Shown here in pieces: positions 2,533 through 52,888 of a stretch of 64,000 nucleotides of DNA. The stretch is from positions 141,670,001 through 141,734,000 of the forward strand of contig OZ024742.1 in NCBI GenBank assembly GCA_964016885.1, given 5' to 3'. The first letter of the stretch is position 1, and every line of letters begins with the position of its first letter. This DNA is from Eledone cirrhosa. Taxonomy: Eukaryota. Position numbers and translations under genes: made by a program. The notes below the pieces were generated by a model, which did no database searches, was not told the DNA's origin, and saw only the letters and a list, made by a program, of their open reading frames with translations.

Positions 2533-3096
2533 AACAGTCTATATTTTCTGGAAGGTATACTTTCAGTTCAATTACTGCTATTTTAAAATTGGATTTTACT
2601 CCTTCTAATCCTCTGTCCACTAATTATCTTTTGTAATTTTGTAAAGAAGTCGCTGTACATCTGCCTGTGGGTCATATGAAGATGTTTCCAGTATTAGTAT
2701 CTTATCTAGGTATTTCAATCATCTTTCAATTACTTATGTTAAATAAAGCTTAGTAATAAGAAACACTACAAATATTGTGTTGGAGATTAATGCCCCTTGT
2801 CTGTTGTTTTCATTCTGTTGGTCGCTTCTCTGCTCTAAATTAACTGGTCTTCCTGTATTTCCGTTTGTTTTTTATTTGATACCTCCACCGTCAACACCAC
2901 TACACTAGTAGTTGTTGGTGTTATTGCTTCTATCATAGAATCAAGGCCAGAAACATTGGGTGAGGGAAACAGTTGAATGTATCAACCCCAACTATTTCAT
3001 TGGTACTTTATTTATCGAACTCCAAGCACAGTATTGACTACGGTTGGTTTTGACCCCAGAACGCAAAGGGCAGCAATCACACCAGCATTATTAAAT

Positions 3097-3280
3097 GGAT
3101 TGGCAGTATCGATAGAGGGTCGGACGCCATGCTTTCTAGCATAGTTACGTCCCTTTACAGTCTGCGTTCAAATCCCACCGAGGTTAACTTTGCCTTACAT
3201 CCTTACGGGGTCGATAAAATAAAGTACCAGTAATGTACTGGTGAATTGCTGGCCTTGTGCCTAAAGTAGAAACAATTATT
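3097..3280 (+). mobile_element. tRNA-derived SINE (major family, Deu/Nin-like central domain)
   Basis: A-box-like tggcagtatcga, B-box gttcaaatcc, central gccttacatccttacggggtcgataaaataaagtaccag, and a short att tail. Confidence 0.85.
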
Positions 3281-4249
3281 AAACTGCTATTTGGTTTTCA
3301 AGATTTAAATACCTCAGTAAATGTTCCAGCTGTCTGCGCTCTCATCTCAAATCACGTCGAAGTTGTCTTTACTTTTTCGGAGTTGATAAATAAAGTATCA
3401 ATGCAGAGGCAATGGATTGGTGGAATTGAGTTGATCGGGATGTTTGCGGTATCTCATTCGGCTCTGTGACTTCTGAGTTCCAATCTCACCCCCATGAATT
3501 GCGACTGGTAGACAGTATCAGCACAAGCAAGACCAATGGAAACAGTTTTCTGGGTATGATCTAATGATCTGTCACTCTTCTTTTGTTGGTATTCAGTAGT
3601 TCCCTAGAAACTCAATCCAAGTATTGTGGACATCTTCCAGAAATCTCAGACCTGGTTGTAGTAACGGGGAGCATTACGGTTTATTGAAAACTATATAAGT
3701 ATGGAAGTGTTGAAAGCTGGGTTTGTCCTGGTTGCACTCGTTCAGTGGTCAAACATTATTGACATGTAAAGTTGTGTTAAATAGCTATTGTCAGGAGTGA
3801 AACGGATTTGGTCAGCAGTCGATTCCATCATGATCCTTTCATTAAACGGGAAAGGAAGACAGTTTTTTTTCTCTGTCTGGTAGCTACAGCGATAAAAATT
3901 GTATTGTGGAGATAACTGAAAGCTCATCTTCGGTCAAACCCTCAACAACTTCAAGTTCCATTTGAAGAGGAAGGTGAGAGTGAAGAGGGAGCTGCTGCCC
4001 TATAGCGAATTTGTTGAAAGCTGAATAAGAGTGGTTAAAATGACTGGCATGAACGAGCCCATTCTTAAGAGGCGCCTGTAAACCGGAGAATGCAACAAGA
4101 AAAAAAGATTAATTTGGTAGTTAGTAATTCTGAATATGTGAGGTATCTTGATTGACTCTAGGTGCTGCTCGTAGTGAGACACTTTAATCATTACGTTTCG
4201 TATTAGATTAAGGAGTCATGCTTCAATCTTAGCAGGAAAATATGACATT

Positions 4250-4495: not shown

Positions 4496-5325
4496 ATGAC
4501 ATGGATTCCTTATCAATATAAACATCAGAAATTATTTTTTAAATCATAAGAGCATGAAAAACGCATATAAATATATGCACACATATGCTTATATGCATAC
4601 ACATGAACAAATAATACATTCAACACCCATACATATTATGTCTGTAGAAGACCATTGACATATATACACTCTCATTTGTTCAGCTATACTCACACATGCA
4701 TGCATTTGCACAAAGTGGAAGCATACATCAAATACGGCCTGACGTAAGAGGGAAACATGACAAATTGAAGGAAATTGCAAAATACTGTAGTAAGACATGT
4801 AACAATAATGTGATTATAGAAAACACAAACTGAATAGCTGTTATTAAGCCACTGTTTTCTGCGAATTAATGGATTGTATGTTGAGTGTGGTAGAGGATCC
4901 TGTAACTGTTACATAAATATTAAGAAGTTGTTGTTGTTGATAATATAACAATCGTTGTAGTTGTAATTGTAAAATGACTATGTTTGAGTAAATATAATTC
5001 TAAATGGTACGAGAATACTCGATTAAAAGTTTGATGCGAGTTTGCAAATTCGTAATATCAGACGTAGTCGTATAGCTTTTAATGTATTACATCAATATAT
5101 TATTGACAAATCATCGATATTTTTTATTGAACGTAAATAGGTGAAAATAGTGGAGGGTGAAAACCTAAATTGATATTCGATGGATTCGCCCATTATATTC
5201 CAGTGCATTAAATGTCAAAATATCTGAGATAAATATACTATTGTTAACACTATATCTCGGACTATAAACGTCATCTTTAAAGGATGAATAGTTTTTGCAA
5301 TATTTACACCCCCTTCTTCTTTGAG

Positions 5326-5848
5326 TACCTTTAGCGGAGTTTCCCTTGGGTTCCTCTAGCGGAGTTTATTTTGGGTTCCTTTAGCGGAGTTTACTTTGGG
5401 TTCCTTTAGCGGAGTTTACTTTGGGTTCCTTTAGCGGAGTTTACTTTGGGTTCCTTTAGCGGAGTTTACTTTGGGTTCCTTTAGCGGAGTTTACTTTGGG
5501 TTCCTTTAGTGGAGTTTATTTTGGGTTCCTTTAGCGGAGTTTACTTTGGGTTCCTTTAGCGGAGTTTACTTTGGGTTCCTTTAGCGGAGTTTATTTTAGG
5601 TTCCTTTAGCGGAGTTTACTTTGGGTTCCTTTAGCGGAGTTTATTTTGGGTTCCTTTAGCGGAGTTTATTTTGGGTTCCTTTAGCGGAGTTTATTTTGGG
5701 TTCCTTTAGCGGAGTTTATTTTGGGTTCCTTTAGCGGAGTTTATTTTGGGTTCCTTTAGCGGAGTTTACTTTGGATTCCTTTAGCGGAGTTTATTTTAGG
5801 TTCCTTTAGCGGAGTTTATTTTGGGTTCCTTTAGCGGAGTTTATTTTG
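5326..5848. repeat. 25-bp minisatellite, ~21 copies (ttcctttagcggagtttaYtttggg)
   Basis: Direct reading of head-to-tail units with no unique spacers. Confidence 0.95.
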
Positions 5849-7708: not shown

Positions 7709-8514
7709 TCCAAAGTCACCCTCCTCACCAAGAAACCTTGGTGGGGTTGCCAGTTTAGTCGCCAACGACCCGACCATGAGACAGGTTGTACTGGGATACA
7801 TGTTACCAGTAGCACCAACATCCTGCAGGACTAAAAACAAAACCTGTCAAAGGGCAAAGGAGCTCGTAAGAGTCAATGGCCATCCAAAATCATCGGGAGA
7901 GATGACCTCTTAGCCTTTGTCAAGGCAGAATTCTAGGAGAAGGAAAACTCTGATATAACACCTGCAACCCTGATGGTATCCAATGATGTTGACTTGTTCT
8001 TCTTTTTGGTAAATACCATCTTGGTTAAGAGAGTGGGACTGGCTTTGTGCAGTGCCTTTGCTCACTATAAAAGCTTCACGGCACAGGCATTGCTTTATAT
8101 CTGGAGATCTCTCTGCACTTGTCATCACATGGTACCATGAGCCCAGCACTATGTGTCAATAATTGTCAGAAGTGTAGTGTTTGTACCAGAGTTTTCAAGT
8201 CGCTGGCTGGACTAAAAAGTCACACTCGTTCAGCGCATCGGTAGGGGTTCTCCTACATGGATATAAAGTAGTGGTCGTACTCGAAAACGAGTTGGCAGCC
8301 ACCATGTATGTATGTATGTCTTTTTTTTTTAATTTCAAGTTTATTTTTGAGCGACCATCTTCCCGACAGTAAGGTTGTAAGGAAAAAAGAATTTCCGTCG
8401 TCCCTTGTTCAATCATTCATCTTTTGAATTTAGATTTTGAAGGTTAAAAAGCTGCATTCGTTCAGTCATACTTTAGTCCTGGTGGGTTGCTATATATACT
8501 GTAGCTTCAATAAT

Positions 8515-8940
8515 AATGGTTTCCGATTTAGGCACAAGGCCAACAATTTTGGGGATGGGAAAGTCGATTAAATCGACCATAGTGCATTACTGGTACTTTA
8601 TTTTATCGACCCCGTAAGATTGAAAGGCAAAGCTAACTTCGGCTGTTTTTGAACTGAGAACGTAAAGGGGCGAACTATATACAGCAAAGCATGTTGTCCG
8701 ACACTCTACCAACATTGCCAATCCATCGCTCTTGTAGCATCAATAATAATTGTTTCTACTTTAGGCACAAGGCCAGCACATACCCAATGCATTACTGGTA
8801 CTTTATTTTATCGACGCCGTAAGGATGAAAGGCAAAGTTAACCTAACCTCGGCGGGATTTGAACTCAGAATGGCAAGGGCCGTAACTCTATGCTTCAAAG
8901 CATGGCGTCCGACCCTCTACCGATACTGCCAATCCACCAC
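8515..8940 (-). mobile_element. Two adjacent tRNA-derived SINE copies (~8515-8730, ~8748-8940)
   Basis: Both match the reverse complement of the SINE consensus (ggtactttattttatcgac, gatttgaactcaga, gccaatcca). Confidence 0.8.
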
Positions 8941-10462
8941 GAAACTGAACAAGTATTTTGGGCAGTGGATCTGCAAACTCCTCATGCGTAATTTTTCTAA
9001 CAATATTGATATCGAGTGGGCAGTTGACTTCCACAACAAAGCATGTTTTCTATGTGTGGTCAATTTGTTTTAATTTGGTGACAGATTTTATTTTTAGATT
9101 CCTCCAATATTGCCTTGAGCCACCAGTCTCAATATATTCATCCCCATTTATTCATTTTTTTAGCTATCACATTATGTCTCATAGGAAGAAGGTATAAACG
9201 AAAAGACATTCTCTCGCTGTTGGCAATGGTTTAGCTAACATCTTTGAATCACCGTGGTCAGTGATAGAATTTGCTAAATCTTTTTCTTACGCATCTAAAT
9301 CATGTGCCTTGTGCAGCAACGAACAATTCTTCACATCGGTGTTTCTTGTCAATCTGCTGAATTCAAAGAACGAGGTACTTCAACATTATGTCAACGAAAC
9401 AAATTTGTTGTGAGGGAATTTTATTCTAACTACAGGTTGAATATACTGCAATTTTAATGGTAGATTTTCTTTTTACAATTCTTCGATTTTTTTGGTAGCT
9501 CCACAAGGTTTCATAAATGTCCTATCCTACAGATATCGTATTTTGTGGCAACAGCTGGTAGCTGAATGTTATTCAAAGGTGTTTCGCAGAAGAATAAAAA
9601 CTATTAGTAGACTGTCTAGAAATCTCTTGTTTGCTTCTTGATACTAATAAAAGAACTCGAATTTGTATGCTGCATCTTGAGCACATTTTCTCTTTATTTA
9701 CTTATATTCTTTTACATATTTCTGGATGCAGCATTCGTGGAATATTGGGCACATGTCATTTAACGTGTCCGTAAGTTGACTCAAACCTTGTGAGTGAAAT
9801 TAAGTAAAGGGAAACTATTGACTGTGCTTATAATTCAAAGACTTGACACTGAGAGGAACTAAGTTTGACACTGTCAAACTGAGTTCCCCTGAGAATTCCA
9901 TTAAAGGTGCACGGGACTTTGGAATGCATAACCACTTGCATGTTAATTTCACGAGCAGTCTGTTCTGGTGATTGAATAACTGGAACATGTATCATCAAAA
10001 TTGACGGAGATCCATGGATTTATGTACTTATTTAATCACTGATCAACTATTTTTCAATTTTCCATATGTTATCAATATAAATATTTCTTTTATTTTCATT
10101 TTCATTCTTTTCTTCTTCTTTCTATTTCTATATTCCGTAAATCCGAATACAGCTTTCTTTTCTACTTCTTTCTGTCTCCATTCATAGCTAAGTTTATATC
10201 AAATTAATAAGTTTTCTTATATTTTTGAGTTTATTTTTATTTTGTGTTACGATCTTAATTTAAATTAATATATTAATAATGTATTTCGCAGAGAATAAGA
10301 ACTATTAGATATCTGTTTTCTACTTTCTTCCAAATTCCAAAATGAATTTGAAATTTTCTATAGAATCTTGTACATGTTTTGATTTTGGTTTTGTTATATT
10401 TTATTTATTTGTTTACTTTTAAATTTAAGCAATAATCATCTGTTTACACTCTACTATTAATA

Positions 10463-11359
10463 CGAGGTGTGTCAGAAAAGTTCCAGGACTGATGTCACAA
10501 AAGATTTATTTCAAACCCCAACTTCACTCTAAGAGTTTTCTCCTTCAAAGTAATCCCCCTGGAGTCTAATGCACTTTTCCATCCTTTTCTGCCACGCTTG
10601 CATGCACTCATGGAAAGATTCTTCCGGGATTCTCCGCAGTTCCATCGTCACGGCCTTTTTGATGTCGTCCACGTCTTCAAAACGTGTCCCCTCCGGGTCG
10701 TACTCGGAGATCCATGACTCACCACCGGTGATGACTGTCCCTAGCAAGTCTGGTTCGGTTTCAAGACGCTCGAGGATGTCCTGGCACACTTGCATGCGTC
10801 GACCCTTCTGGTCATCATTCAGCAGTTTTGGCACCATCTTCGCGCAAGACTCTCCGCATGTCCAAATCTTCAGTGAGAATCTTCCAGACGCTGTCCCGAT
10901 TCATGCCCAGCTCATTTGTCATCAGTCGAACAGTCAGCCGACTATCGCTACGCACCATCTGCCTGACGCGCTCAACGTTGACTTCAGTCCTGGTTGTTGA
11001 GGGCCTTCCGCTCCTGGGGTCATCTTCCACGTCCTCGCGTCCTTCTTTAAACCTCTTGCACCACTCAAAAACGCGCGAGCGTGACATCGTCTCATCTCCA
11101 TACACTTGCTGCAGCAATCCCAGTGCTTCTGACAGAGTTTTCAAGTTTGTTCGTTGCTCTGTGCTCATTGCTTGACGACCTGAAACAGAGGACATGTATA
11201 TAAAATTATGAAGAAGAAATTTTGATCGTTGCTGAGAACTAAGATTACAGTTACATACTCCAGGGGGATTACTTTGAAGGAGAAAACTCTTAGTGTGAAG
11301 TTTTGGTTTGAAATAAATCTTTTGTGACATCAATCCTGGAACTTTTCTGACACACCTCG
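10463..11359 (-). mobile_element. Internally deleted mariner transposon with ~105-bp TIRs and TA TSD
   Basis: TIRs ta|cgaggtgtgtcagaaaagttccagga ... tcctggaacttttctgacacacctcg|ta. Transposase remnants include SRSRVFEWCKRFKEGREDVEDDPRSGRPST, VPKLL, TGGESW and WQKRMEKCIRLQGDYFE. The catalytic middle is deleted and the ORF is frameshifted. Confidence 0.95.
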
Positions 11360-11452: not shown

Positions 11453-12029
11453 AATTATATCTTTTCTTTATACTCCTCCTTATCAAGCAAACATTCCTTC
11501 TTCCCAGCATCTTTCTACATTCAATCAGTTACCTATTCTAATTTACTTTCGCGTATCCCTTTAATAAATACCCCCCATAAAGCTTCCTGTACCCAAAATT
11601 ATACAGAGATAAATACACCATTTACCACTCATTCCTTCATTTATTCCCCACAGTTCCTTTATATATCTATAAGTCTATTCATCGATACCTTTCCCTTTCT
11701 TTTCTATTCTATATATACCTACTTTCATATCTAAATATTTTGTCAATCGCTATATATTACAAATACTTAATTTTTCCAAAATTATTTAACCTTATTTGTA
11801 AACCTTATTTTTCCAAAATTATTTAACATATATTTCTTTTATTATTTTTCCAATGGTTTCCACACAGTTTCTGTCTACCAAGTTTCACTTGCAAAGCGCA
11901 TATCTATAGTAGAAGACACTTTCCAGGGGTAACGTGCAAGGGGATTGAACTTGAAACCACGTGTCCATATATATAAGCCTGTAATTTAAAATAAAGCATT
12001 TAGTCATATCGAAAAATATTAGCTTGACG

Positions 12030-12675
12030 GCGAAAACTCTTTTCAATTACTGCTAGGGCATCGGAAAAAATGACTGGACAGTATTTCTTCTGTCTCTTTA
12101 CGTTCTGGATTCAAATAGACTCAACCTCAACTTTGCCTTTCATCTTCCCAAGGTCGATAAAATAAAATACCAATCAAGCACAGGGGTCAATATAGCTGAA
12201 CTGATGGTTCTGTGCTTAAATTAGAAATCATTATTCATTTCACTATATAAATATAGTTTCTAACATAAACACAAGGCCAGTAAATGGAAGGAAAAAGTCG
12301 ATTAAATCGACCCCAGTACTTTATTAGTATTTCGTTTTATCGACCGGAGAAGGATGAAAGGCAAAATTGACATCGGCAGGATTTGAACCCAGAAAATAAG
12401 GTGCCAGAACAAATACCACTAAGCATTAGTCTGATGGAATAACGACTCTGCTAATCCTCTCCTCCCATTCCATTATATATATTGAGGGCGGTGGATTGGC
12501 AGTATCGGTAGAGGGTCGGATGCCATGCTTTGACGCATAGAGTTACGGCCCTTTCCATTCTGAGTTCAAATCTCGCCGAGGTCAACTTTGCCTTTCATCC
12601 TTACGAGGTCGATAAAATAAAGTACCAGTAATGTACTGGGTAATTGCTGGTCTTGTGCCAAAAGTAGAAATAATT
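12030..12675. mobile_element. Cluster of three SINE copies (~12030-12235 +, ~12255-12460 -, 12485-12675 +)
   Basis: All match the SINE consensus. The last copy is nearly intact (gggcggtggattggcagtatcgg...gagttcaaatctc). Confidence 0.8.
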
Positions 12676-12758
12676 ATATATATTGATAACGTTTTCCATA
12701 GATGTGTGCGGATGCGCGCGTGCATACATGCGAGTGTGTAAATATATATATATATATA

Positions 12759-12867
<109 letters not shown>

Positions 12868-12890
12868 GTATGTGTGTATATATATATATG

Positions 12891-12922
<32 letters not shown>

Positions 12923-13040
12923 TATGTGTATATATATATGTATATATGTATATGTATGTGTATATATATATATGTATGTGTGTATATATATATGTATATA
13001 TATATATGTATGTATATATATATATGTATATATATATATG

Positions 13041-13198
<158 letters not shown>

Positions 13199-13432
13199 TA
13201 TATGTATACATATATATATATATATGTATACATATATATATATAATATTTATAATATATATAATAAAAAAGAAATAGGATTTCGCTTCAAGCATATCTTT
13301 ATACAATATGTATAAATATTTTGTATCTCCAAAGAAATACAGTTTTAGGAAGCCGTAGCTATGCAAACACCGAGGGGGGGGGGGGGGTGACTAACGCCGC
13401 CTGGTGATGTCCAGCAGAAGCAAGGGGGACAA

Positions 13433-13474
13433 CCGTCTATGCATTTCAGGCTTAGCTGGCCTCCGTCAGGACGG
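13433..13474 (-). ncRNA. Type I hammerhead ribozyme copy with A9G core mutation (CUGACGG)
   Basis: Inverted copy of 13781-13822. Confidence 0.7.
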
Positions 13475-13780
13475 TCCCTCCCACTGCTTGCGACTGCTGG
13501 ACTAGAAGACAGGCGAGAATATATACTTTTCTCGTCTGTGTAAATGAGGAGATTAATCTCATTTGCATATGAAGCTGCACAAGTTGGCTCAACTAATAAA
13601 AAAGAAATACACATATTGTATAAAGCTATGCTTGAAGCGAAATCCTATTTCTTTTTTATTAGTTGAGCCAACTTATGCAGCTTCATATGCAAATGAGATT
13701 AATCACCTCATTTACACAGACGAGAAAAGTATATATTCTCGCCTGTCTTCTAGTCTAGCAGTCGCAAGCGGTGGGAGGGA

Positions 13781-13822
13781 CCGTCCTGACGAAGGCCAGC
13801 TAAGCCTGAAATGCATAGACGG
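13781..13822 (+). ncRNA. Type I hammerhead ribozyme (intact core)
   Basis: ccgtc-CTGACGA-aggc(cagctaa)gcct-GAA-atgcat-A-gacgg. All three stems pair and stem III is palindromic. Confidence 0.9.
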
Positions 13823-13982
13823 TTGTCCCCCTTGCTTCTGCTGGACATCACCAGACGGCGTTAGCCCCCCCCCCCCCTCCGGTGTTTGCATAGCTACGGC
13901 TTCCTAAAACTATTTCTTTGGAGATACAAAATATATATATATGTATATATATAATATATATGTATATATATATATATATATA

Positions 13983-14375
13983 CGAGGCCAATCCCAAAAG
14001 TAAGGTCTCCTTCCCATATTGCAACTTTTCCGTTAAAATCCTGTGGATGGTGCTTCGGGAAACCTCAGGAACCAAAATGCAGAGAGCATCCAGAGTGATC
14101 CCCCGATCTTTACGCATGTTTTCCTCGGAAGGAGACCTTACTTTTGGGATTGCCCTCTATATAATAACTGCGTGAAATTCGCACTTGGCGGTAGCGTTCA
14201 ACGGGAGCTCCATTCTCAACGGCTGCCAAGCCAAGATTGAGCATCCCAGCGAAGCGCGCGCATGCTTGTTTGGGAGTGAAGGAAGCACCCATCACAACAG
14301 TGTTGCCAACAGCCGTACGAACAGCTTCTCTGCGTTCAAATCGCTTTGGAGACCTTACTTTTGGGATTACCTTCG
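13983..14375 (-). mobile_element. Non-autonomous mariner derivative with three TIR copies
   Basis: TIR cgaggccaatcccaaaagtaaggtctcc has inverted copies at 14131-14157 and 14348-14375. The transposase remnant is RKDRGITLDALCILVPEVSRSTIHRILTEKLQY. Confidence 0.8.
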
Positions 14376-32907: not shown

Positions 32908-33313
32908 TTCGTTTCTGAATTTGTTTAGCAAGATTCTTTATCTGAAATCGTGTGTTGAAACCGATATTATTATACTTTGGGAGGGTCATGTTGCCAATAA
33001 GAAACACACGCACCAGTTGCTTTCACTTCAATTTATTATATATTTATAAATTTATAAATTTACAAATCAACAAACTTATAAATTTCTGGTTGGTTGGTTG
33101 GTTCCACAACCAGATAGTTGTTTAGTTGTTTATAGTTGACGAAAGGACTATGACTATATATAAACAACTATCTGGTTGTGGAACCAACCAACCAACCAGA
33201 AATTTATAAGTTTGTAGATTTGTAAATTTATAAATTTATAAATATATAATAAATTGAAGTGAAAGCAACTGGTGCGTGTGTTTCTTATTGGCAACATGAC
33301 CCTCCCAAAGTAT

Positions 33314-33320
<7 letters not shown>
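32905..33320. mobile_element. Fold-back element, second copy of the 62-348 family with longer arms and a different centre
   Basis: Arms ~32964-33123 and ~33161-33320, flanked by (TA)n. Confidence 0.85.
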
Positions 33321-33931: not shown

Positions 33932-34038
33932 TATATACATATATATATCAGTATATATAAGTATATATATATATATATATATATAGATGAGATTCTACAG
34001 GACTAGAACTGTTTCATTCATTAGAAATCATCAGGAAT

Positions 34039-34087
34039 GATTCCTGATGATTTCTAATGAATGAAACAGTTCTAGTCCTGTAGAATC
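34039..34087 (+). ncRNA. Type I hammerhead ribozyme (intact core)
   Basis: gattc-CTGATGA-tttc(taat)gaat-GAA-acag(ttctagtc)ctgt-A-gaatc. Confidence 0.85.
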
Positions 34088-34170
34088 TCATCTATATTAA
34101 AACTGTTATACTCTGCTATGTATTGAGTACCTTACTTACTGTGGTTACCTCCGATTCAACCCGGAATAAC

Positions 34171-34265
<95 letters not shown>

Positions 34266-34843: not shown

Positions 34844-35365
<522 letters not shown>

Positions 35366-35481
35366 ATTTATTTATTTATTTGCTTGTTTGTTTATCTTAT
35401 TTTATTTTGTCTTCTTTGCGCATGCGTTTGCGTGTGTGCATAGTGTTATGTGTGCTGTGTGACTAGTGTGTATAGTGTTGT

Positions 35482-35684
35482 GTCTGCTGGGTGACTAGTG
35501 TGTGTTTATGTGCTTGTTGTTATTGTGCTTGTGTATGTATTTATTTATCTTATTTTATTTTATTTTATTTATTTATTTATTTAAATAAATACATTTATTT
35601 ATTTATTTATTTATTTATTTAATAAATACATACACAAGCACAATAACAACAAGCACATAAACACACACTAGTCACCCAGCAGAC
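35482..35684. repeat. Fold-back with an (TTTA)n-rich centre
   Basis: gtctgctgggtgactagtgtgtgtttatgtgcttgttgttattgtgcttgtgtatgtatttatt is followed by its reverse complement at 35621-35684. Confidence 0.85.
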
Positions 35685-39701: not shown

Positions 39702-40290
<589 letters not shown>

Positions 40291-40348
40291 TTATTATATA
40301 TATATAATAAAAGGGCGATTAGTTATGTCTTCATTACGTTCATTGAGT

Positions 40349-42097: not shown

Positions 42098-44059
42098 ATG
42101 GCTGAGCCACGCCCCCAGCGATATGTCGGCTGTCGTGCGACAACGACGTAGAAGTTGAGAGGAGCGCTACAGCGAAATTAACACAAATTGATAACACAAA
42201 CACCACCACAAACAAAGTAAACAAAGACACCAATGATACCAATGAGAACTCTACTTTTGAAAAAAATGACAGTAACAGCGACAAAGAAAATACAGATAAC
42301 AAAAAAAAAAAAATAACAAATACAACAAGATCAACACCACTAACATGAAAACAAATAGCGACAACAGCAACAGCAACAATACCAACTGCACCGAGAACAA
42401 CGGTGGCAACAAAGACAACAATGATAACAGCGACAGTGCTAACAACAACACCAACAAGAACAACGACAACACCCCCAACGAAAACAAGAAGAACACTTTC
42501 GCTGCGGCAGCAGCAAAAAAGAGGCCATGCTTCAACATGGACCTCTCAAACAAAGATGAAAAGTTGGCCCAAGCATGGAAGCTCATCAAGCAAGAGCAAA
42601 CCTGGGCCAACTTAACTGTCCCGGTAGAAGCTATTGAGGCAGTGGAGCGCAGAACGGTGCATTATAGATGCATCTCAGCACAAACCAAAAGTGCAGCTTT
42701 AATCCCACAAGAAGTTGTCGAAGTCGCGCTGAGGTTCATCAGAGAAGACACCCAGTACATAGAGAGGGGCAGACAGTACGGCACCATTTCGGTGTTGTTC
42801 AAGTCAGAAGCCCTCGCTATGAAACACGCTATGACTCCTTGCAAAACCAGCAAGGTCATAATGTACCCCTCCCACATGGGAAAAAGAACCAGGACTTGAC
42901 ATGTGGTGGCTTCTGGGATGTGTGATTGTGGAGGGGACGGATACCGTCCCTATAGAAGTGACCAGAACGGCCAGAGAGGACTGGTCCGGGGTTGACCTGG
43001 AGATCCTTCTCAAGATCAGGCCCGAGAATGTGAAGACAATCCCGGACCACATCCGCATTCAGAATGGGACGGTCATTCACATTATGACCGAAGGCAAAAG
43101 GCCGCAGTGTTTTGTTTGTGGGGAAAAAACCCATTTGCGAGCCTTCTGCCCTCAACTGCTGAAAGAGGCAAGGGGTCGAAAGGCTCCACTGCTGCCGACG
43201 CCGGGGCGAGGACCACAACCAACACCAGCACCGGCAAAACCACCAACAACAACACCAATAGAAAGACCACCACCAACATTGACCACCCAGGGGGGAAACG
43301 AGGAAAGCTGTCAAATTCGCCCTCCCCCCCAAAATACACACACCAATAAAACCATAAACATACATACAGACACACTTACAGACATAGACCCCTCATCTAC
43401 CAGTAGTGAAAATGAGGGAAAACCCAAATCCCCCAAAATACAAAAAACTCAACACAAAAAGAAAAAAAAACTCAACAAAGCACAAAAGCACCCACAAGAA
43501 AAAAAACGCAGACACCACCCACGCAGACACCACCCACGCAAACATCTCTCCAATAACACCAACATCAACACCACCATCACCATCACCAGAATCCCCCAAA
43601 CGCAAACAACCGAAACAGACGCAAGAACAAATATACACACAAACATCTGAAACAACAGACACCGCACTCACAACAAACACAGATACAACCGAAACAACAC
43701 CACCAAAACCATCACCACCACAGCCACGCAAACAAATAAAATCACACCAACAAAACATACAAAACTTCGTGATCGTCAGGAGGGCCAACAAGGAACTGAT
43801 GGCCCTCGTAGCACGAAGTGAAAATATACAAAAAGAGGGGGAAATTTTTAAATCGAGCACATTTCGCGTGCCGGAAGATTTGGTTCTGGTGCGAATGTCG
43901 CTCGACATATTCAAAGAAATACGAGACAGCTTTCCTCGGGACGTGGGAACCCCGAACGTAAAACCCACTTCAAGACTTTTAACGGGGTTCCCAAAAGAAA
44001 CCCCACCAACTATAGAGGTCGAACAACCCGACCTTCACAAGAGCCCGGAAGGTAAGTAA
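42098..44059 (+). pseudogene. LINE ORF1 (gag-like, frameshifted) with zinc knuckle
   Basis: CFVCGEKTHLRAFC (CX2CX4HX4C) plus N/T/P-rich low-complexity segments, split across frames. Confidence 0.8.
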
Positions 44060-44090
44060 ACCTTCCTCTCTCTCTGTTTAACCTGCCAAC

Positions 44091-47000
44091 ATGGCCGTAT
44101 TAAGAGTAGGATGTTTAAATGTTCGAGGCCTGCGATCGTCCTGGAAGCAAGGTCACCTGCTCAACGACCTCAGGTCTATAGAAATGGATGTAATTGCAGT
44201 CAGCGAGACCAGGATTTCCGACACGCGCGCACTAGCCCCCATTTTCGACGACTATCAGATCTTTGCATCTGTTAGCCGGCCGGGAATGGGAGGCGGGGTG
44301 GAAGTGCTGTTTAGGAAAGGCCTGGACCTCAAGGTAAGGTCGATCTTCCGGGACCCGGACGGGAAGTTGGTGGTCCTGGACGTGAACAATAATGAAGGTG
44401 GTGCTTTTAGACTGGTGGCCGTCTATGCTCCTACTGGGGAAGGACGGCCGGACTTCATTAGACGCCTGGAAGCCTTTCTGGGTACGTCTCGCCTTTTACT
44501 GTTAACGGGGGACTGGAACGGCATCTTAGACGCACGCTGGGACTGTGTGGGAGTATCCGATAGGAGCGGGGGTGCAAAAGCCTCAAGAACCTGATCAGCC
44601 AGTTCCAACTGTCTGACAGGTACCGACTAGATTTCCCTAATGCGCCAGTGTAGACCTACTAACCGCATAGGGTAATCTAGATCGTATATAGACAGGATAT
44701 TCATTAGGAAAATAGACAGAAATAGTGTAAGCTGTCCACGTTTTGAAACGCTCGCCTATTCAGATCACAAGTTTGTGATCTGTATGGTCGACCTAGATAA
44801 GACGCGTAGGTTAGGACCTGGTTACTGGAAGCTAAACATGTCATTTCCGGCACGTAAGGCTTACAGGGACCAGGTCAACAATTTAGTTAAGAAAAAGTTG
44901 ACAGGGGGAATCGTCAACAATAGATGGTGGAGGGCTCTCAAAAGAGAGATTAGAGTTTAGCAAAGAAGTAGCATTAGAGAAAAATAGAAAGGAGGGGGAG
45001 TTGGTAGATAAGTTAGACGAGGCATTGCAACTGATGTGCTAGCGGCGAGAATGGCATTAGACCATTTCTTCAATGCGAAACACGAAGGTTGCATTGTCAG
45101 AGCTAAGGCGCGTGCTCTGAGAAACGAGGGAACCAAAGCTGTTCGATGGGCCCGCGTGGCAGAGGCGCAGCGTGGTAATAAAACCACGATTCGGTCTTTG
45201 ACGGACCGAGACGGGCACGAGCTGAGCGATTCCAAGAGGATGTGTGAGGCCTTTCGCCAACATTTTGCTCGGTTGTTCGGGGGAAGTGGCGGGTCAGAGA
45301 TGGTGGCGGACTTCAGTCCCTACCTCGATGGCTTGCCGCAACTCTCGACGGCTGACACTGCGAAAGGCCAATTACTTCAGCCGAGATTCAGGATGCCCTT
45401 GTAGGCTGCATGAGGCGCAAGTCACCCGGTTTGGATGGTCTGCCCTACGAGCTTTATGTAAATATGCCAGACTTGTTCTCCAATCTCCTCGAAGCCCTCT
45501 ACTGCAACTGGCAGAAAAACGGGAGTATTCCCAGTTCTGTGAGCCGGGGCGTAGTGAAGCTGATAAGGAAAGACGAGAACGAGAGGGACACATTAGACAA
45601 TTTCAGGCCCATAATTCTGCTCAACACAGAGTTTAAGATTTTGGCCAGGGTGTTAGCGAAGAGGTTGGCGCTTGTCGTCGGGAATTTGGTTGGGGAGGAG
45701 CAAACTTGCACAATCCCAACCAGGTCCATACACGACAACCTCCACCTAATGCGATACATCATAGAGAGGGTAGGGTGTAAACCTGGCTTCGGTGGGGCTC
45801 TGATCAATTTAGATCAATCGAAAGCATTCGATAGGGTCGACCATCGGTACCTGGAGGCTGTCCTCAAGGCGGCTGGCTTCGGCCCCGTCTTCAGAAGCTG
45901 GATCGCTGCAATGCACAGCGGCACCTGCTCGATGGTCAAAATTAATGGCCACCTCTCGGAACCGTTTCAGGTCTCCCGATCGGTCCGTCAAGGGTGCCCT
46001 CTCTCCCCCCTTCTGTACGTATTGACTCTCGAGCCTTTACTGCGGAAGCTGGAGCTGTTGCAGGGCATCCCGCTCGAACCGGGACGCGGAAAGGCCGTGT
46101 CGGCTTATGCGGACGACATCACCGTGATGGTGTCGGACACCTCAGAAATCGAGGTGCTCGGCAATATAATGGAGGAATATGAAAGGTTGACGGGAGCAAA
46201 ACTTAACCCGGAAAAGTCAGTAGGCTTGCAACTCGGCACCAGGAGAGGCAAGTCCATGCCGTCCAACAGCGTCGTTAGGCGCTGGACGGACGGACCGGTA
46301 AAGTTGCTAGCGGTTTGGTTCGGGCCAGACCTCCAGGTGGATAAGAATTGGGACGATGTGACGGGCAGGGTAGTCAGTCTCACCCAGAAATGGGCTGGGA
46401 TGAAGCTATCACTGAAAGGTCGGGCGGAGGTGGAGGACGCCTACATCGCGTCCGTCATCTACTACCGTCTGACTGTCGTCCCTTTCCCCCGTTCGTGCCT
46501 CGCCATCTTGGAGCGGCTCCTCTTCAAATTCTTGTGGAGGGGTCAGGTTCCGCTGGTGAGGCGGTCCATCTGCTGCCAGCACCCTCTACGTGGAGGGCTA
46601 GCATGCCGTGGCTAATGATGCGCAGGCACGCGCTGAGGCTGCGGCATCTCCAGATATTCTGCCTAAACGGTGAACAGGTGTGGTCGTCGTTTGTCAGACG
46701 GGCCTTTCCGCAGCTCGTTTCTTTGACTGAGTTGCAGTCCTGGGTCAAGAAGAGACCGAGACTGGGTGACTGGCATCTGGAATGTTGCCAGGCACTCACT
46801 GCCCTCTGCCAGGCGGGCAATACGGTCAGTGGAACTTCCACTCTCGAGTTCTATAGAGGATTAGTGGTGGGCAAGTGCGACGATGCACTCGGAGAGGCTC
46901 TGGGCGTCAACGAAGTCGAACTAACCAGTCTGTACCGGAGGACTTTCGAGCCGGGGACGATGGATAATTTCCAAAAATCCCTCGCTTGGCAGTGTTACCG

Positions 47001-47480
47001 GGGGGCACTGCCGGTTCGAGATAAACTCTACAGGCACGGAAGTGCTGTCAGACGGACCTGCCCGAGATGCGCGCAGAGCGACGAAACCGTTCTGCATGCA
47101 CCGTCCAGTGTCCGTGTATTACTGACTTGTGGAGTTATGTCGAACAGCTGTTGTCGCGTGTAGAACGGATCCAGCTATCGGCCGAGTCCATAGTGAAGAT
47201 CGACCCGCCGCCTTCTTTTGGCCAGGAAGGGCAGGCAATGTTCCTCTGTCTAGTGGCAGTAGCGAAAGAGGTTGTATGGTGGACGAGGTTGAAAGGACTG
47301 AAGACAGACACTTTTCTCTTCGGCCAATCCCTCATCAACTTTTTCAAGTTTCACTTGGAAAGGAAGGTGAGGGTGGAGAGAGAAGTGCTGCCCCCCACCC
47401 CCCAGTACATTTGCTGAAAGGTGGGTGAATGTGGTGAGAATGGCCCGTGTGAGTGGGCCTACTCTGGTCATGCGGCTGTA
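44091..47480 (+). pseudogene. LINE ORF2 (APE endonuclease + reverse transcriptase + zinc finger), disrupted
   Basis: LNVRGL, SET, VYAP, GDWN, SDHK (APE). KSPGLDG, NFRPIILLN, LDQSKAFDRV, RQGCPLSP, AYADD (RT). CPRC...ETVLH (zinc finger). Confidence 0.92.
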
Positions 47481-49579: not shown

Positions 49580-49644
49580 GCTGTGATATATATTTCACTG
49601 GCGACACTGTTCTGTGTGCGAGTGTCGTGACATCATCAGACAGC
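49580..49644 (-). ncRNA. Type I hammerhead ribozyme (left-arm copy)
   Basis: Minus strand reads gctgt-CTGATGA-..cgacact(loop)agtgtcg..-GAA-atatatat-C-acagc. Confidence 0.75.
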
Positions 49645-51212
49645 TTGTTACATAATAAGGTTATGTTTCCGAGGCAATCCAAATTGAATCGACAAGGGAA
49701 CGGATGAAATGCGTGCTTTTGGGTCTCTCATCCGTTACCCTGTGAGTACCAATTCACCCCCACCGGTCTGCGCATGCGCATGTCCGAAGGAAGTTGACCA
49801 TTAGCTATCGCAGATTTCAACGAAATTCGCTTAGTCAGGTCACCCTCTCAGCCACACAATGGCTCGTACCACAGTTTACTGCTACCCATCCCGACTGTGG
49901 CAGTCAGCCGAAAGCCAGAGGGGATGGGATAGTGTTAGTTCCTACAGGTCATAATACTACCTCTCACCTAGCGTGGACAGTACGACTGACCATCAACTCA
50001 AAGGGAAAATAAACTTAATTCTAGGTATCATGGTTTTACATTGTATGTTAAGAGTGAGAGTTGGAAATAAAAATTAAAGTCCTAAATCAAATATTATAAA
50101 TTATAAATTAAACAATTAAAAAATTAACAATTAGAAATTAAAAGTTAAACAGTTTTTTCAGGTGAGAATTCGGATTGAGGTGAGTAAAAAAAATATAGAT
50201 TGAAGTGAGTAAATAATATGGAGATAGATGTTTAAGTAAGAAGTTCTGAGAGGGGTTCTAGTGTCACAGTTACTCTATCCACATATTGAACGACAGTGCC
50301 GTGCATTAGAACGGTGGGTAAACTACAGTATTCAAGGCATTGGTCAATCTGGTACACAGTCATAATTTCCATCACATGGAACAATATCAAAGAAAAACAG
50401 ACATAAAGTACACAAAAGAAAAGAAAAGAACCAATAATGAATAAATGCAAAAACACAGAGTACATATATGCAAAATGATCCATATGATTGTCAATCTGTC
50501 AATGTATAGATTGAATTGAGGGGGCTTCTGTTCAAATGCGATTTGGTGCAGGGAAATAGGGGTTTATCTTATTTTTTGTTTCCGCGTATTTATCCTGCCG
50601 AAAGTTACTATTATGTCCGTCCAGTTTCAAGGGTTTCCATTATTATTTACTCACTTCAATCTATATTTTTTTACTCACCTCAATCCGAATTCTCACTTTA
50701 AAAAATTATTTAACTTTTAATTTCTAATTGATAATTTTTTATTGTTTAATTTATAATTTATAATATTTGATTTAGGACTTTAATTTTTATTTCCAACTCT
50801 CACTCTTAACTTACAATGTAAAACCATGATACCTAGGATTAAGTTTATTTTCCCTTTGAGTTGATGGTCAGTCGTACTGTCCACGCTAGGTGAGAGGTAG
50901 TATTATGACCTGTAGGAACTAACACTATCCCATCCCCTCTGGCTTTCGGCTGACTGCCACAGTCGGGATGGGTAGCAGTAAACTGTGGTACGAGCCATTG
51001 TGTGGCTGAGAGGGTGACCTGACTAAGCGAATTTCGTTGAAATCTGCGATAGCTAATGGTCAACTTCCTTCCGACATGCGCATGCGCAGACCGGTGGGGG
51101 TGAATTGGTACTCACAGGGGAACGGGTGAGAGACCCAAAAGCACGCATTTCATCCGTTCCCATGTCGATTCAATTTGGATTGCCTCGGAAACATAACCTT
51201 ATTATGTAACAA

Positions 51213-51286
51213 GCTGTCTGATGATGTCACGACACTCGCACACAGAACAGTGTCGCCAGTGTCGCCATTGAAATATATATCACAGC
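51213..51286 (+). ncRNA. Type I hammerhead ribozyme (right-arm copy, 9-nt duplication in stem II)
   Basis: gctgt-CTGATGA-tgtcacgacact...agtgtcgccagtgtcgccatt-GAA-atatatat-C-acagc. Confidence 0.75.
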
Positions 51287-51409: not shown

Positions 51410-51489
<80 letters not shown>

Positions 51490-51833
51490 TGAATGTATGT
51501 ATAGTATATTTGGCAATATACCGTATGTTTAATTAAAAACATTTTGAAGACCTTGCGCTATTGTTTTTAAAGTAGTGACTATGTCACTTCTTTTTTCGGC
51601 AAAGAATCCAGCCTCTAGAATTTTCGGCAAAGTACGTTACTCTGAGGAACACCAACAGTGTGAAACAGAATCTGTCAGCTTCTCTCCCTTCCTTTGCCGA
51701 AAAAAAAAGTAAGTGACATAGTTGAAAAACAATAGCGCAAGGTCTTCAAAATGTTTTTAATTAAACATACGGTATATTGCCAAATATACTATACATACAT
51801 TCATGTATACATCGCTATTTCAGAGCACCATTC

Positions 51834-51836
<3 letters not shown>
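51490..51836. mobile_element. Fold-back (arms 51490-51604 and 51692-51803) with hammerhead in the spacer
   Basis: The arms are reverse complements and the element is flanked by (TA)n. Confidence 0.85.
51639..51679 (+). ncRNA. Hammerhead ribozyme with weak stem I
   Basis: ct-CTGAGGA-acac(caaca)gtgt-GAA-acag(aat)ctgt-C-ag. Confidence 0.7.
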
Positions 51837-51867
<31 letters not shown>

Positions 51868-51869
<2 letters not shown>

Positions 51870-52196
51870 AAAGTTTCATTTAAAATTGTTGGGATACAAC
51901 AAGTAAATATTTTATAACTGATATAAAGCACTCGACGAGTTTTTGGAGTAGATATACGATATTAAATAAATGGAAACTATATTTATAAAACCATATTTAT
52001 TTCAATATATAAACAGTTTCAATATATAAACAATTTCAATATATAAACAATTTCAATATATAAACAGTTTTATAAAACTGTTTATATATTGTATTTTATC
52101 TGACGAAGGCATGCCATATTTTAATTTGGTATCCCTGAAATATGTATAATGAAATAAATATGGTTTTATAAATATAGTTTCCATTTATTTAATATC
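51868..52196. mobile_element. Rearranged fold-back with hammerhead at 52092-52156(+) and 17-bp tandem repeats
   Basis: tattttat-CTGACGA-aggcatgcca...tggtatccct-GAA-atatgtat-A-atgaaata, plus aatatataaacaRtttc x3-4. Confidence 0.8.
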
Positions 52197-52444: not shown

Positions 52445-52888
52445 TAGAAGTTATATTTAATTTGTTGGGATACAACAAGCAAATATTTTTAAAACTGATA
52501 TAAAGCACTCGACAAATTTTTGGAGTAAAAATACAATATATTAACAAATGGAAACTATATTTATAAAACCATATATATTTCATTATACATATTTCAAGGA
52601 CACCAAAGCAAATTATAGTGCGCTTTCATCAGATAAAATATAATATAGATCAGTTTTATAAACAAATATTGACATACCCTTAAAGAATGCGACCATGTCG
52701 GTTGGAAGCTCCCGGAACTTCCAACCGACATGGTCGCATTCTTTAAGGGTATGTCAATATTTGTTTATAAAACTGATCTATATTATATTTTATCTAATGA
52801 AAGCGCACCATCATTTGCTTTGGTGTCCTTGAAATATGTATAATGAAATATATATGGTTTTATAAATATAGTTTCCATTTGTTAATAT

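Follow-up and report, generated by a model that had tools for sequence, protein, structure and literature searches.

An insert of 672 nt (13261–13932) in the genome of Eledone cirrhosa raises the question of how two copies of one short, hammerhead-bearing unit came to stand head-to-head with their parts in different order, and what kind of RNA served as their template. Positions are those of the window, the whole 64,000-nt stretch of DNA that was analysed. A sequence-only reading had described the two copies as different circular permutations of one unit and had taken them as the trace of a circular or multimeric RNA. The insert is flanked on either side by a TA-rich microsatellite, and self-alignment of the window resolves it into two head-to-head arms of one 333-nt unit, made up of segments A and B. 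Window-wide BLAST located the unit in this single insert only. The features of the locus are the following.

12740–13260, no strand: left TA-rich microsatellite, the likely insertion target (from the sequence; a target-site duplication is unreadable within the tract)
13261–13609, minus strand: long arm, made up of the final 16 nt of A followed by B and a complete A; total length one unit plus 14–16 nt (BLAST, alignment)
13261–13317, minus strand: 3' extension on one side (56-nt "tail") that corresponds to segment A, its outer end being site L (56 nt on the left, 0 on the right; the end at 13263 beside (TA)n recurs in other copies)
13431–13476, minus strand: long-arm copy of the hammerhead motif, its core altered at 13463 by a private change (descriptor, alignment, family letter)
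13594–13609, minus strand: 16-nt terminal redundancy of the long arm, the same as 13261–13276 (sequence match)
13608–13610, no strand: head-to-head junction, a 2-nt overlap plus base 13610 (alignment blocks)
13611–13932, plus strand: short arm, A then B; one unit minus 1–6 nt, its outer end being site S (BLAST, alignment)
13779–13824, plus strand: type I hammerhead motif, cut predicted after 13817 (descriptor, predicted folds)
13933–13982, no strand: right TA-rich microsatellite (sequence)

The alignment pairs 13646–13934 with 13609–13316 and 13608–13661 with 13314–13261, and 8 of the 342 aligned places, together with three small indels (4, 1 and 2 nt), distinguish the arms. In ribozyme-sense order, the plus arm reads A then B from 13611 to 13932 (at most 13608–13934), as the sequence-only reading had given it. 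For the minus arm (13609–13261), the order had likewise been recognized correctly, B running into a complete A down to 13261; its start moves from 13607 to 13609, and the arm opens with the final 16 nt of A. That this arm starts and ends with the same sequence was also borne out, over 16 nt, or 14–16 nt considering that the TA tract may account for the final two letters. Segment A occurs at both the centre and the left end of the insert, a recurrence far beyond chance (E = 3.8e-21 in window-wide BLAST; an independent score of 96, with a maximum of 30 among 200 shuffles). This recurrence, the head-to-head alignment and a descriptor match for the ribozyme uphold the claim that the arms are different permutations of one hammerhead unit. 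The proposed size of about 335 nt was close: the unit is short, with an exact period of 333 nt at the locus vs 336 nt across the joint found in the wider family. At the centre, 2 nt are compatible with both arms and 13610 with neither. Three frames of at least 60 aa lie within the locus, and none has a Pfam match. Directly to its right, 13983–14385 is a short element with a 27-nt motif at 14131 and 14348 that is repeated in inverted orientation near 13990.

The type I hammerhead of the plus arm was identified with our own descriptor, with C3 at 13786, an intact core and a cut predicted after A13817; sites S and L lie 115 and 175 nt past this cut. The motif has a helix I of 7 bp, a helix II of 4 bp with a 7-nt loop and a palindromic helix III of 2 bp. 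Helices I and II are present in predicted folds of the unit, and the helix III stretch is predicted to form a self-dimer of 6 bp (−6.7 kcal/mol). The minus copy carries one core change, at 13463, where the plus-arm letter makes up 99.9% of the depth in X1, one of the public runs considered below. A subfamily consensus read by hand (36 contigs, agreement 0.68) has three of the four helix II pairs changed with the pairing kept. Rfam at gathering scores gave no hammerhead match in the window, and at E up to 10 it gave 22 hairpin-driven matches below threshold, none of them to a ribozyme. The predicted motif fits the "canonical" metazoan hammerhead working as a dimer, as described in PMC4209133; among nine predicted retrozyme dimers, one is reported to have cleaved (bioRxiv 10.64898/2026.07.22.740005). 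No argument for a circle or for a strand was drawn from folding energy, as the antisense folds better than the sense (z-scores of −5.25 vs −3.17 for linear and −5.3 vs −4.23 for circular folds).

The unit belongs to a very abundant repeat family. Of eight public runs listed for it, none recorded as RNA, four (X1, X4, X5 and X6) were compared with the minus arm. X1 holds 3,697 contigs of the family, with a summed depth of about 50,000–180,000 over most of the unit vs 5–10 per contig, figures that express abundance and not copy number; contigs built from short words may combine letters of several copies, and the RAD reads pile up at a small number of loci. The A-to-B joint (13596 to 13261, period 336) was found in all four runs: in two contigs of X1, one of X4, one of X5 and 27 raw DNA reads from nine starts in X6. 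Past 13594 and 13599, loose ends run on into A-like letters (30 and 31 contigs in X1; 114 reads in X6), and in X5, which carries the label of another organism, a single contig of 148 nt covers the end of B, A and the start of B. At the B-to-A junction the X1 depth is 98,031, like that of its neighbours (120,376 and 98,940). The joining of the end of B to the start of A, deduced earlier from the locus, holds for the wider family, in which both junctions occur, and other copies are not confined to one colinear order. No family record among those listed covers the complete unit, and the locus itself is without a tandem dimer. In X4, a small run of 88 million letters and unrecorded kind, the family fills 29 of 30 bins, head-to-tail joint included. 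X5 has just two family contigs (depth 4–7), one of them with a strand change. Peaks of read starts at 13489 and 13568 in X6 are likely RAD restriction sites and were set aside. Exact-pattern scans of metagenome contigs, viral contigs and prokaryote genomes gave no match to the unit.

Because the family is abundant with both junctions, and shows the 336-nt period in four of four runs, the unit is short and permutable rather than the end of a long element. As an alternative, the arms could derive from the truncated ends of a long autonomous Penelope-like element (PLE) in which A happens to be duplicated locally, or the locus could be an artefact of assembly or of library fold-back. Most PLE copies are indeed 5'-truncated (bioRxiv 10.64898/2026.07.22.740005), and the locus's own joint was not seen among the joints listed. 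Against this explanation stand the 336-nt-period joint, which is present in raw DNA reads as well, and the high depth along the entire unit; the differences between the arms argue against a fold-back artefact. We regard this explanation as scarcely credible. Opposite-strand joints are present in other family copies, with orientation not assigned, and the short end S was not seen among the loose ends listed. Breakpoints near S occur in other copies, as joints (13307/13507 and 13320/13537) and as loose ends (13306 and 13308), and could belong to tail-only copies or to full laps.

The outer ends of the family look fixed, not scattered: in both X1 and X6, copies reach as far as 13263 and there meet (TA)n, as at the locus, with stops beside TA-rich letters in 27 X1 contigs and 253 X6 reads and a consensus of the loose letters that ends TA-rich. 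This end, shared by other copies, bears on a narrow form of the sequence-only reading, in which an RT primes a circle at random and each copy is an arbitrary permutation. Random priming would yield two different permutations of about one lap each, as found here, and circles of retrozymes of similar size are abundant in coral, mussel and axolotl (PMC7229834). It does not predict the shared end at 13263, and the one-sided extension found in all 12 fold-back inserts picked from the window points to two set start sites; we consider random priming very improbable.

These inserts show that the fold-back design is common in the window and not special to the family of the 333-nt unit. TA tracts number 137, a frequency that weakens the argument from the insertion target, and many of 64 intervals between TA tracts contain inverted repeats. 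From these intervals 12 fold-back inserts were chosen by eye, the locus included, leaving out 35245–35684 and 51479–51836 (older, 78–83% identity), 11975–12473 (two dispersed repeats), and 8499–11359 and 49594–51272 (long terminal inverted repeats). The extension measures 56–222 nt on one side vs 0–2 nt on the other. Among the picked inserts, only the locus at 13261–13932 has arms long enough for the extension to recur at the centre, and a permuted tail was not found in the 11 others. Five of the six hammerhead matches in the window lie inside such inserts; 27665–27720, a hammerhead-like match with a long helix II, stands alone outside them. Another hammerhead family, with a long helix II, is present at 25553–25926 and 63048–63465, head-to-head in TA tracts with one-sided extensions of 90–96 nt, and a third has the same design at 51867–52196 and 52446–52888, two inserts 250 nt apart with extensions of 91–92 nt. 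The inserts at 64–344 and 32908–33317 form one fold-back family with an extension of 60–62 nt and no hammerhead match, which could represent the ends of a PLE clade without a ribozyme. One-sided extensions without a hammerhead match are also found in the fold-back inserts at 609–780, 16752–17077, 33986–34171, 39800–40294 and 62641–63017.

A rearrangement purely at the DNA level was also considered, in which recombination or repair would have inverted or duplicated part of a tandem satellite without an RNA step. Inverted repeats can arise in DNA repair, and the head-to-tail junctions of the family and its roughly uniform depth over the unit are compatible with a satellite. However, no array remnant lies beside the locus, which is the sole copy in the window; moreover, TA tracts stand at both of its ends, unrelated families of the window share the same design, and the ribozyme core is conserved. 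An origin of this kind appears highly improbable.

The design has counterparts among PLEs, whose insertions often consist of an inverted, 5'-truncated copy with a tail of 30–40 bp at one end and a bias for (TA)n (PMC8557442, PMC3846280). The locus displays the inverted 5' copy in head-to-head orientation, the 3' tail on one arm and the (TA)n flanks, in likeness to the endonuclease-bearing PLEs (Penelope/Poseidon, Neptune and Naiad, and PAc of Anolis, with their AT-rich or (TA)n targets), with a tail of 56 nt vs the published 30–40 bp. The purified Anolis protein PAc cuts and extends both strands of AT-rich DNA, and its reverse transcription begins at two internal RNA sites whose spacing equals the tail, with ribozyme cleavage not required (PMC11167929). 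The hammerhead lies 115 and 175 nt upstream of the end sites in the unit vs about 85–92 nt upstream of the RT start in PAc, by that paper's numbers. Unlike endonuclease-bearing PLEs, which measure kilobases, the 333-nt unit has no RT or GIY-YIG ORF, and its ribozyme has a canonical helix II of 4 bp, whereas minimal PLE hammerheads have a long one. Non-coding relatives are known among the non-autonomous PLEs of Chlamys, such as MRC1, a type with pseudo-LTRs and multicopy head-to-tail insertions; unlike the unit described here, MRC1 is green-algal, belongs to a clade reported to lack canonical hammerheads and has a sequence link to its autonomous partner (PMC8557442). Opposite-strand hammerhead pairs 100–700 bp apart were noted in Schistosoma (PMC4209133), so that such pairs, like non-autonomous PLEs, are already in print.

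Against a PLE origin stands the autonomous partner, which was not found among the 148 of 161 open frames of the window that were scanned: none of these gave a GIY-YIG or PLE-type match, and the unit has no ORF for RT plus GIY-YIG. The only clear domain matches among the scanned frames belong to a mariner remnant and a LINE. The former is mariner-like, with 103-nt inverted ends and a Mos1-type HTH domain (10463–11359), and the latter is frameshifted, with matches to AP endonuclease, RT and zf-RVT (42300–47400). The window also contains an element with 628-nt inverted repeats of 97.8% identity (49596–51261), a minisatellite with a period of about 25 nt (5319–5848), and a dispersed repeat of about 190 nt (3096–3281 and about ten other places) that we presume to be SINE-like. 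A SINE and the load of microsatellites are in keeping with a cephalopod host.

Considering these data together, we judge it likely that a non-coding 333-nt repeat, equipped with a predicted hammerhead, was placed at the locus as two head-to-head copies in one insertion by a PLE RT-endonuclease encoded elsewhere, from an RNA longer than one unit or circular. The unit is most likely a non-LTR retrozyme that behaves as a non-autonomous PLE derivative. By analogy with PLE insertions, what appears as a permutation is best read as the PLE tail on a unit short enough to wrap. In such a process, a source containing at least A-B-A would be transcribed, and its predicted ribozyme would cut as a dimer and could yield circles. 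A PLE protein acting in trans would nick both strands of a (TA)n tract, and each DNA end would prime a cDNA at one of two internal sites, S or L, about 55 nt apart; the end points are seen at the locus, and their use as starts is modelled on the in vitro work with PAc. Each cDNA would then cross the intact ribozyme site and halt after about one lap, as the arm lengths suggest, and the two cDNA ends would presumably be joined head-to-head at the 2-nt overlap visible in the sequence. Classical twin priming of LINEs was rejected: it inverts different parts of one RNA, whereas both arms here copy all of B.

The letters of the two arms were compared with the family in X1, using the 18 rows with a sizeable X1 share among the 40 variants listed. 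At 12 places more than 90% of the X1 depth is unlike the minus arm; both arms have a rare letter in common at five of them, the plus arm has the family letter at six, and one is a gap. This pattern suggests that the arms come from one source lineage and that later divergence fell mostly on the minus arm, and it is likely that the two copies were inserted in one event; the rare letters common to the arms could also reflect gene conversion between them. Three of the six private changes of the minus arm (13400, 13463 and 13580) are A-to-G in the RNA sense, and the plus arm has at most one private substitution; such changes could record RNA editing of the template, with numbers too small to decide.

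The shared rare letters would equally follow if only one cDNA, the long arm, was made from RNA and the short arm was copied from it, folding back at S, reading A, jumping by means of the 16-nt redundancy and reading B to its own start. The full lap of the short arm would then be a DNA event. Such a course would explain why the short arm starts where it ends, to within 1–6 nt; self-priming has been proposed for head-to-head PLE junctions (PMC3846280), and several inserts of the window have central spacers of 0–1 nt. Two switches are required, however, and six later changes on one arm would be needed, given that the short arm has the family letter at six places unlike its supposed template. The long arm would still demand an RNA of more than one unit. 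Copying of one arm from the other is in our view improbable, and insertion of two cDNAs by PLE machinery is retained as the better explanation.

Assignment to the retrozymes follows from comparison with the metazoan non-LTR class, 150–450-nt tandem repeats with type I hammerheads that form circles in coral, mussel and axolotl and for which PLEs are proposed as mobilisers (Cervera and de la Pena 2020, PMC7229834). The unit resembles them in being non-coding and 333–336 nt long (350–390 in mussel, 330 and 350 in axolotl), in its canonical-type type I hammerhead with a weak palindromic helix III, and in the head-to-tail junctions and great abundance of its family. Non-LTR retrozymes are described as standing in head-to-tail tandem arrays, whereas the locus is a dispersed insertion in a TA tract, its two copies head-to-head and a tail on one side only; base pair 10.1–11.1 is A-U in the unit vs the usual G-C. 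Circular RNA and cleavage have been demonstrated for some non-LTR retrozymes; for the present unit, cleavage is predicted.

Neither arm is interrupted at the predicted cleavage site, and a linear monomer running from cut to cut could therefore not have served as the template of either without a jump. The template was thus presumably either an uncleaved RNA spanning no less than A-B-A, about 1.16 units, or a circle closed by religation. To this extent the sequence-only reading stands, since both junctions and the unbroken arms call for an RNA of more than one unit or a closed one. Its further step, from the permutation specifically to a circle, does not: a linear A-B-A transcript would suffice, the ends at 13263 are fixed and the tail is a known feature of PLEs. 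The earlier reading gave too much weight to the circle and overlooked the signature of PLE integration.

If the insertion was made by PLE machinery, we lean slightly towards a linear multimer as its template, considering that the PLE tested in vitro uses uncleaved RNA (PMC11167929). A circle we place a little short of even chances: each arm measures close to one lap, and circles are abundantly produced by related retrozymes (PMC7229834). With uniform phase, roughly 4% of 5' ends would be expected to fall within 6 nt of their own start, a figure derived post hoc from one locus whose two 5' ends are correlated. On the side of the multimer, breakpoints near S in other copies may mean that S is a natural stop whatever the topology; a DNA-level copy via the 16-nt redundancy would also end at S. 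It is conceivable, though on balance unlikely, that the arm lengths record a PLE RT circling a retrozyme RNA once from two fixed internal starts and stopping at its own start. A circle religated by the ribozyme across A13817 has the same sequence as tandem genomic DNA, and for that reason junction reads or divergent RT-PCR alone cannot separate a circle from a tandem.

The question of the template apart, the locus is an ordinary repeat insertion of a known class, and its family may already be catalogued in Repbase or Dfam. A PLE origin of retrozymes is supported by co-occurrence and trees (Li, Clavereau and Pollet 2026, bioRxiv 10.64898/2026.07.22.740005). The main text of that preprint contains no wording on an insertion "tail" or "head-to" arrangement, and nothing on insertion structure was found in parts of PMC7761336, PMC13282606 and PMC11722881. 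We found no published statement of a PLE integration footprint on retrozymes; supplements, such as figures S1–S2 of PMC11167929 and the retrozyme family tables of 2020 and 2026, may bear on it. A retrozyme-sized unit with such a footprint is a different kind of evidence for borrowing from PLEs, beyond shared ribozymes, co-occurrence and trees. With an abundant family and a short unit, the choice between a circle and an uncleaved multimer can be tested from the genome alone, by setting arm length against start site. Circles as the template and mobilisation of retrozymes by PLEs have been proposed, not shown mechanistically (PMC7229834; bioRxiv 10.64898/2026.07.22.740005); were the single lap from two fixed starts to hold true family-wide, the genome itself would reveal circles made by the ribozyme as the template of integration, and PLE enzymes as the mobilisers of retrozymes.
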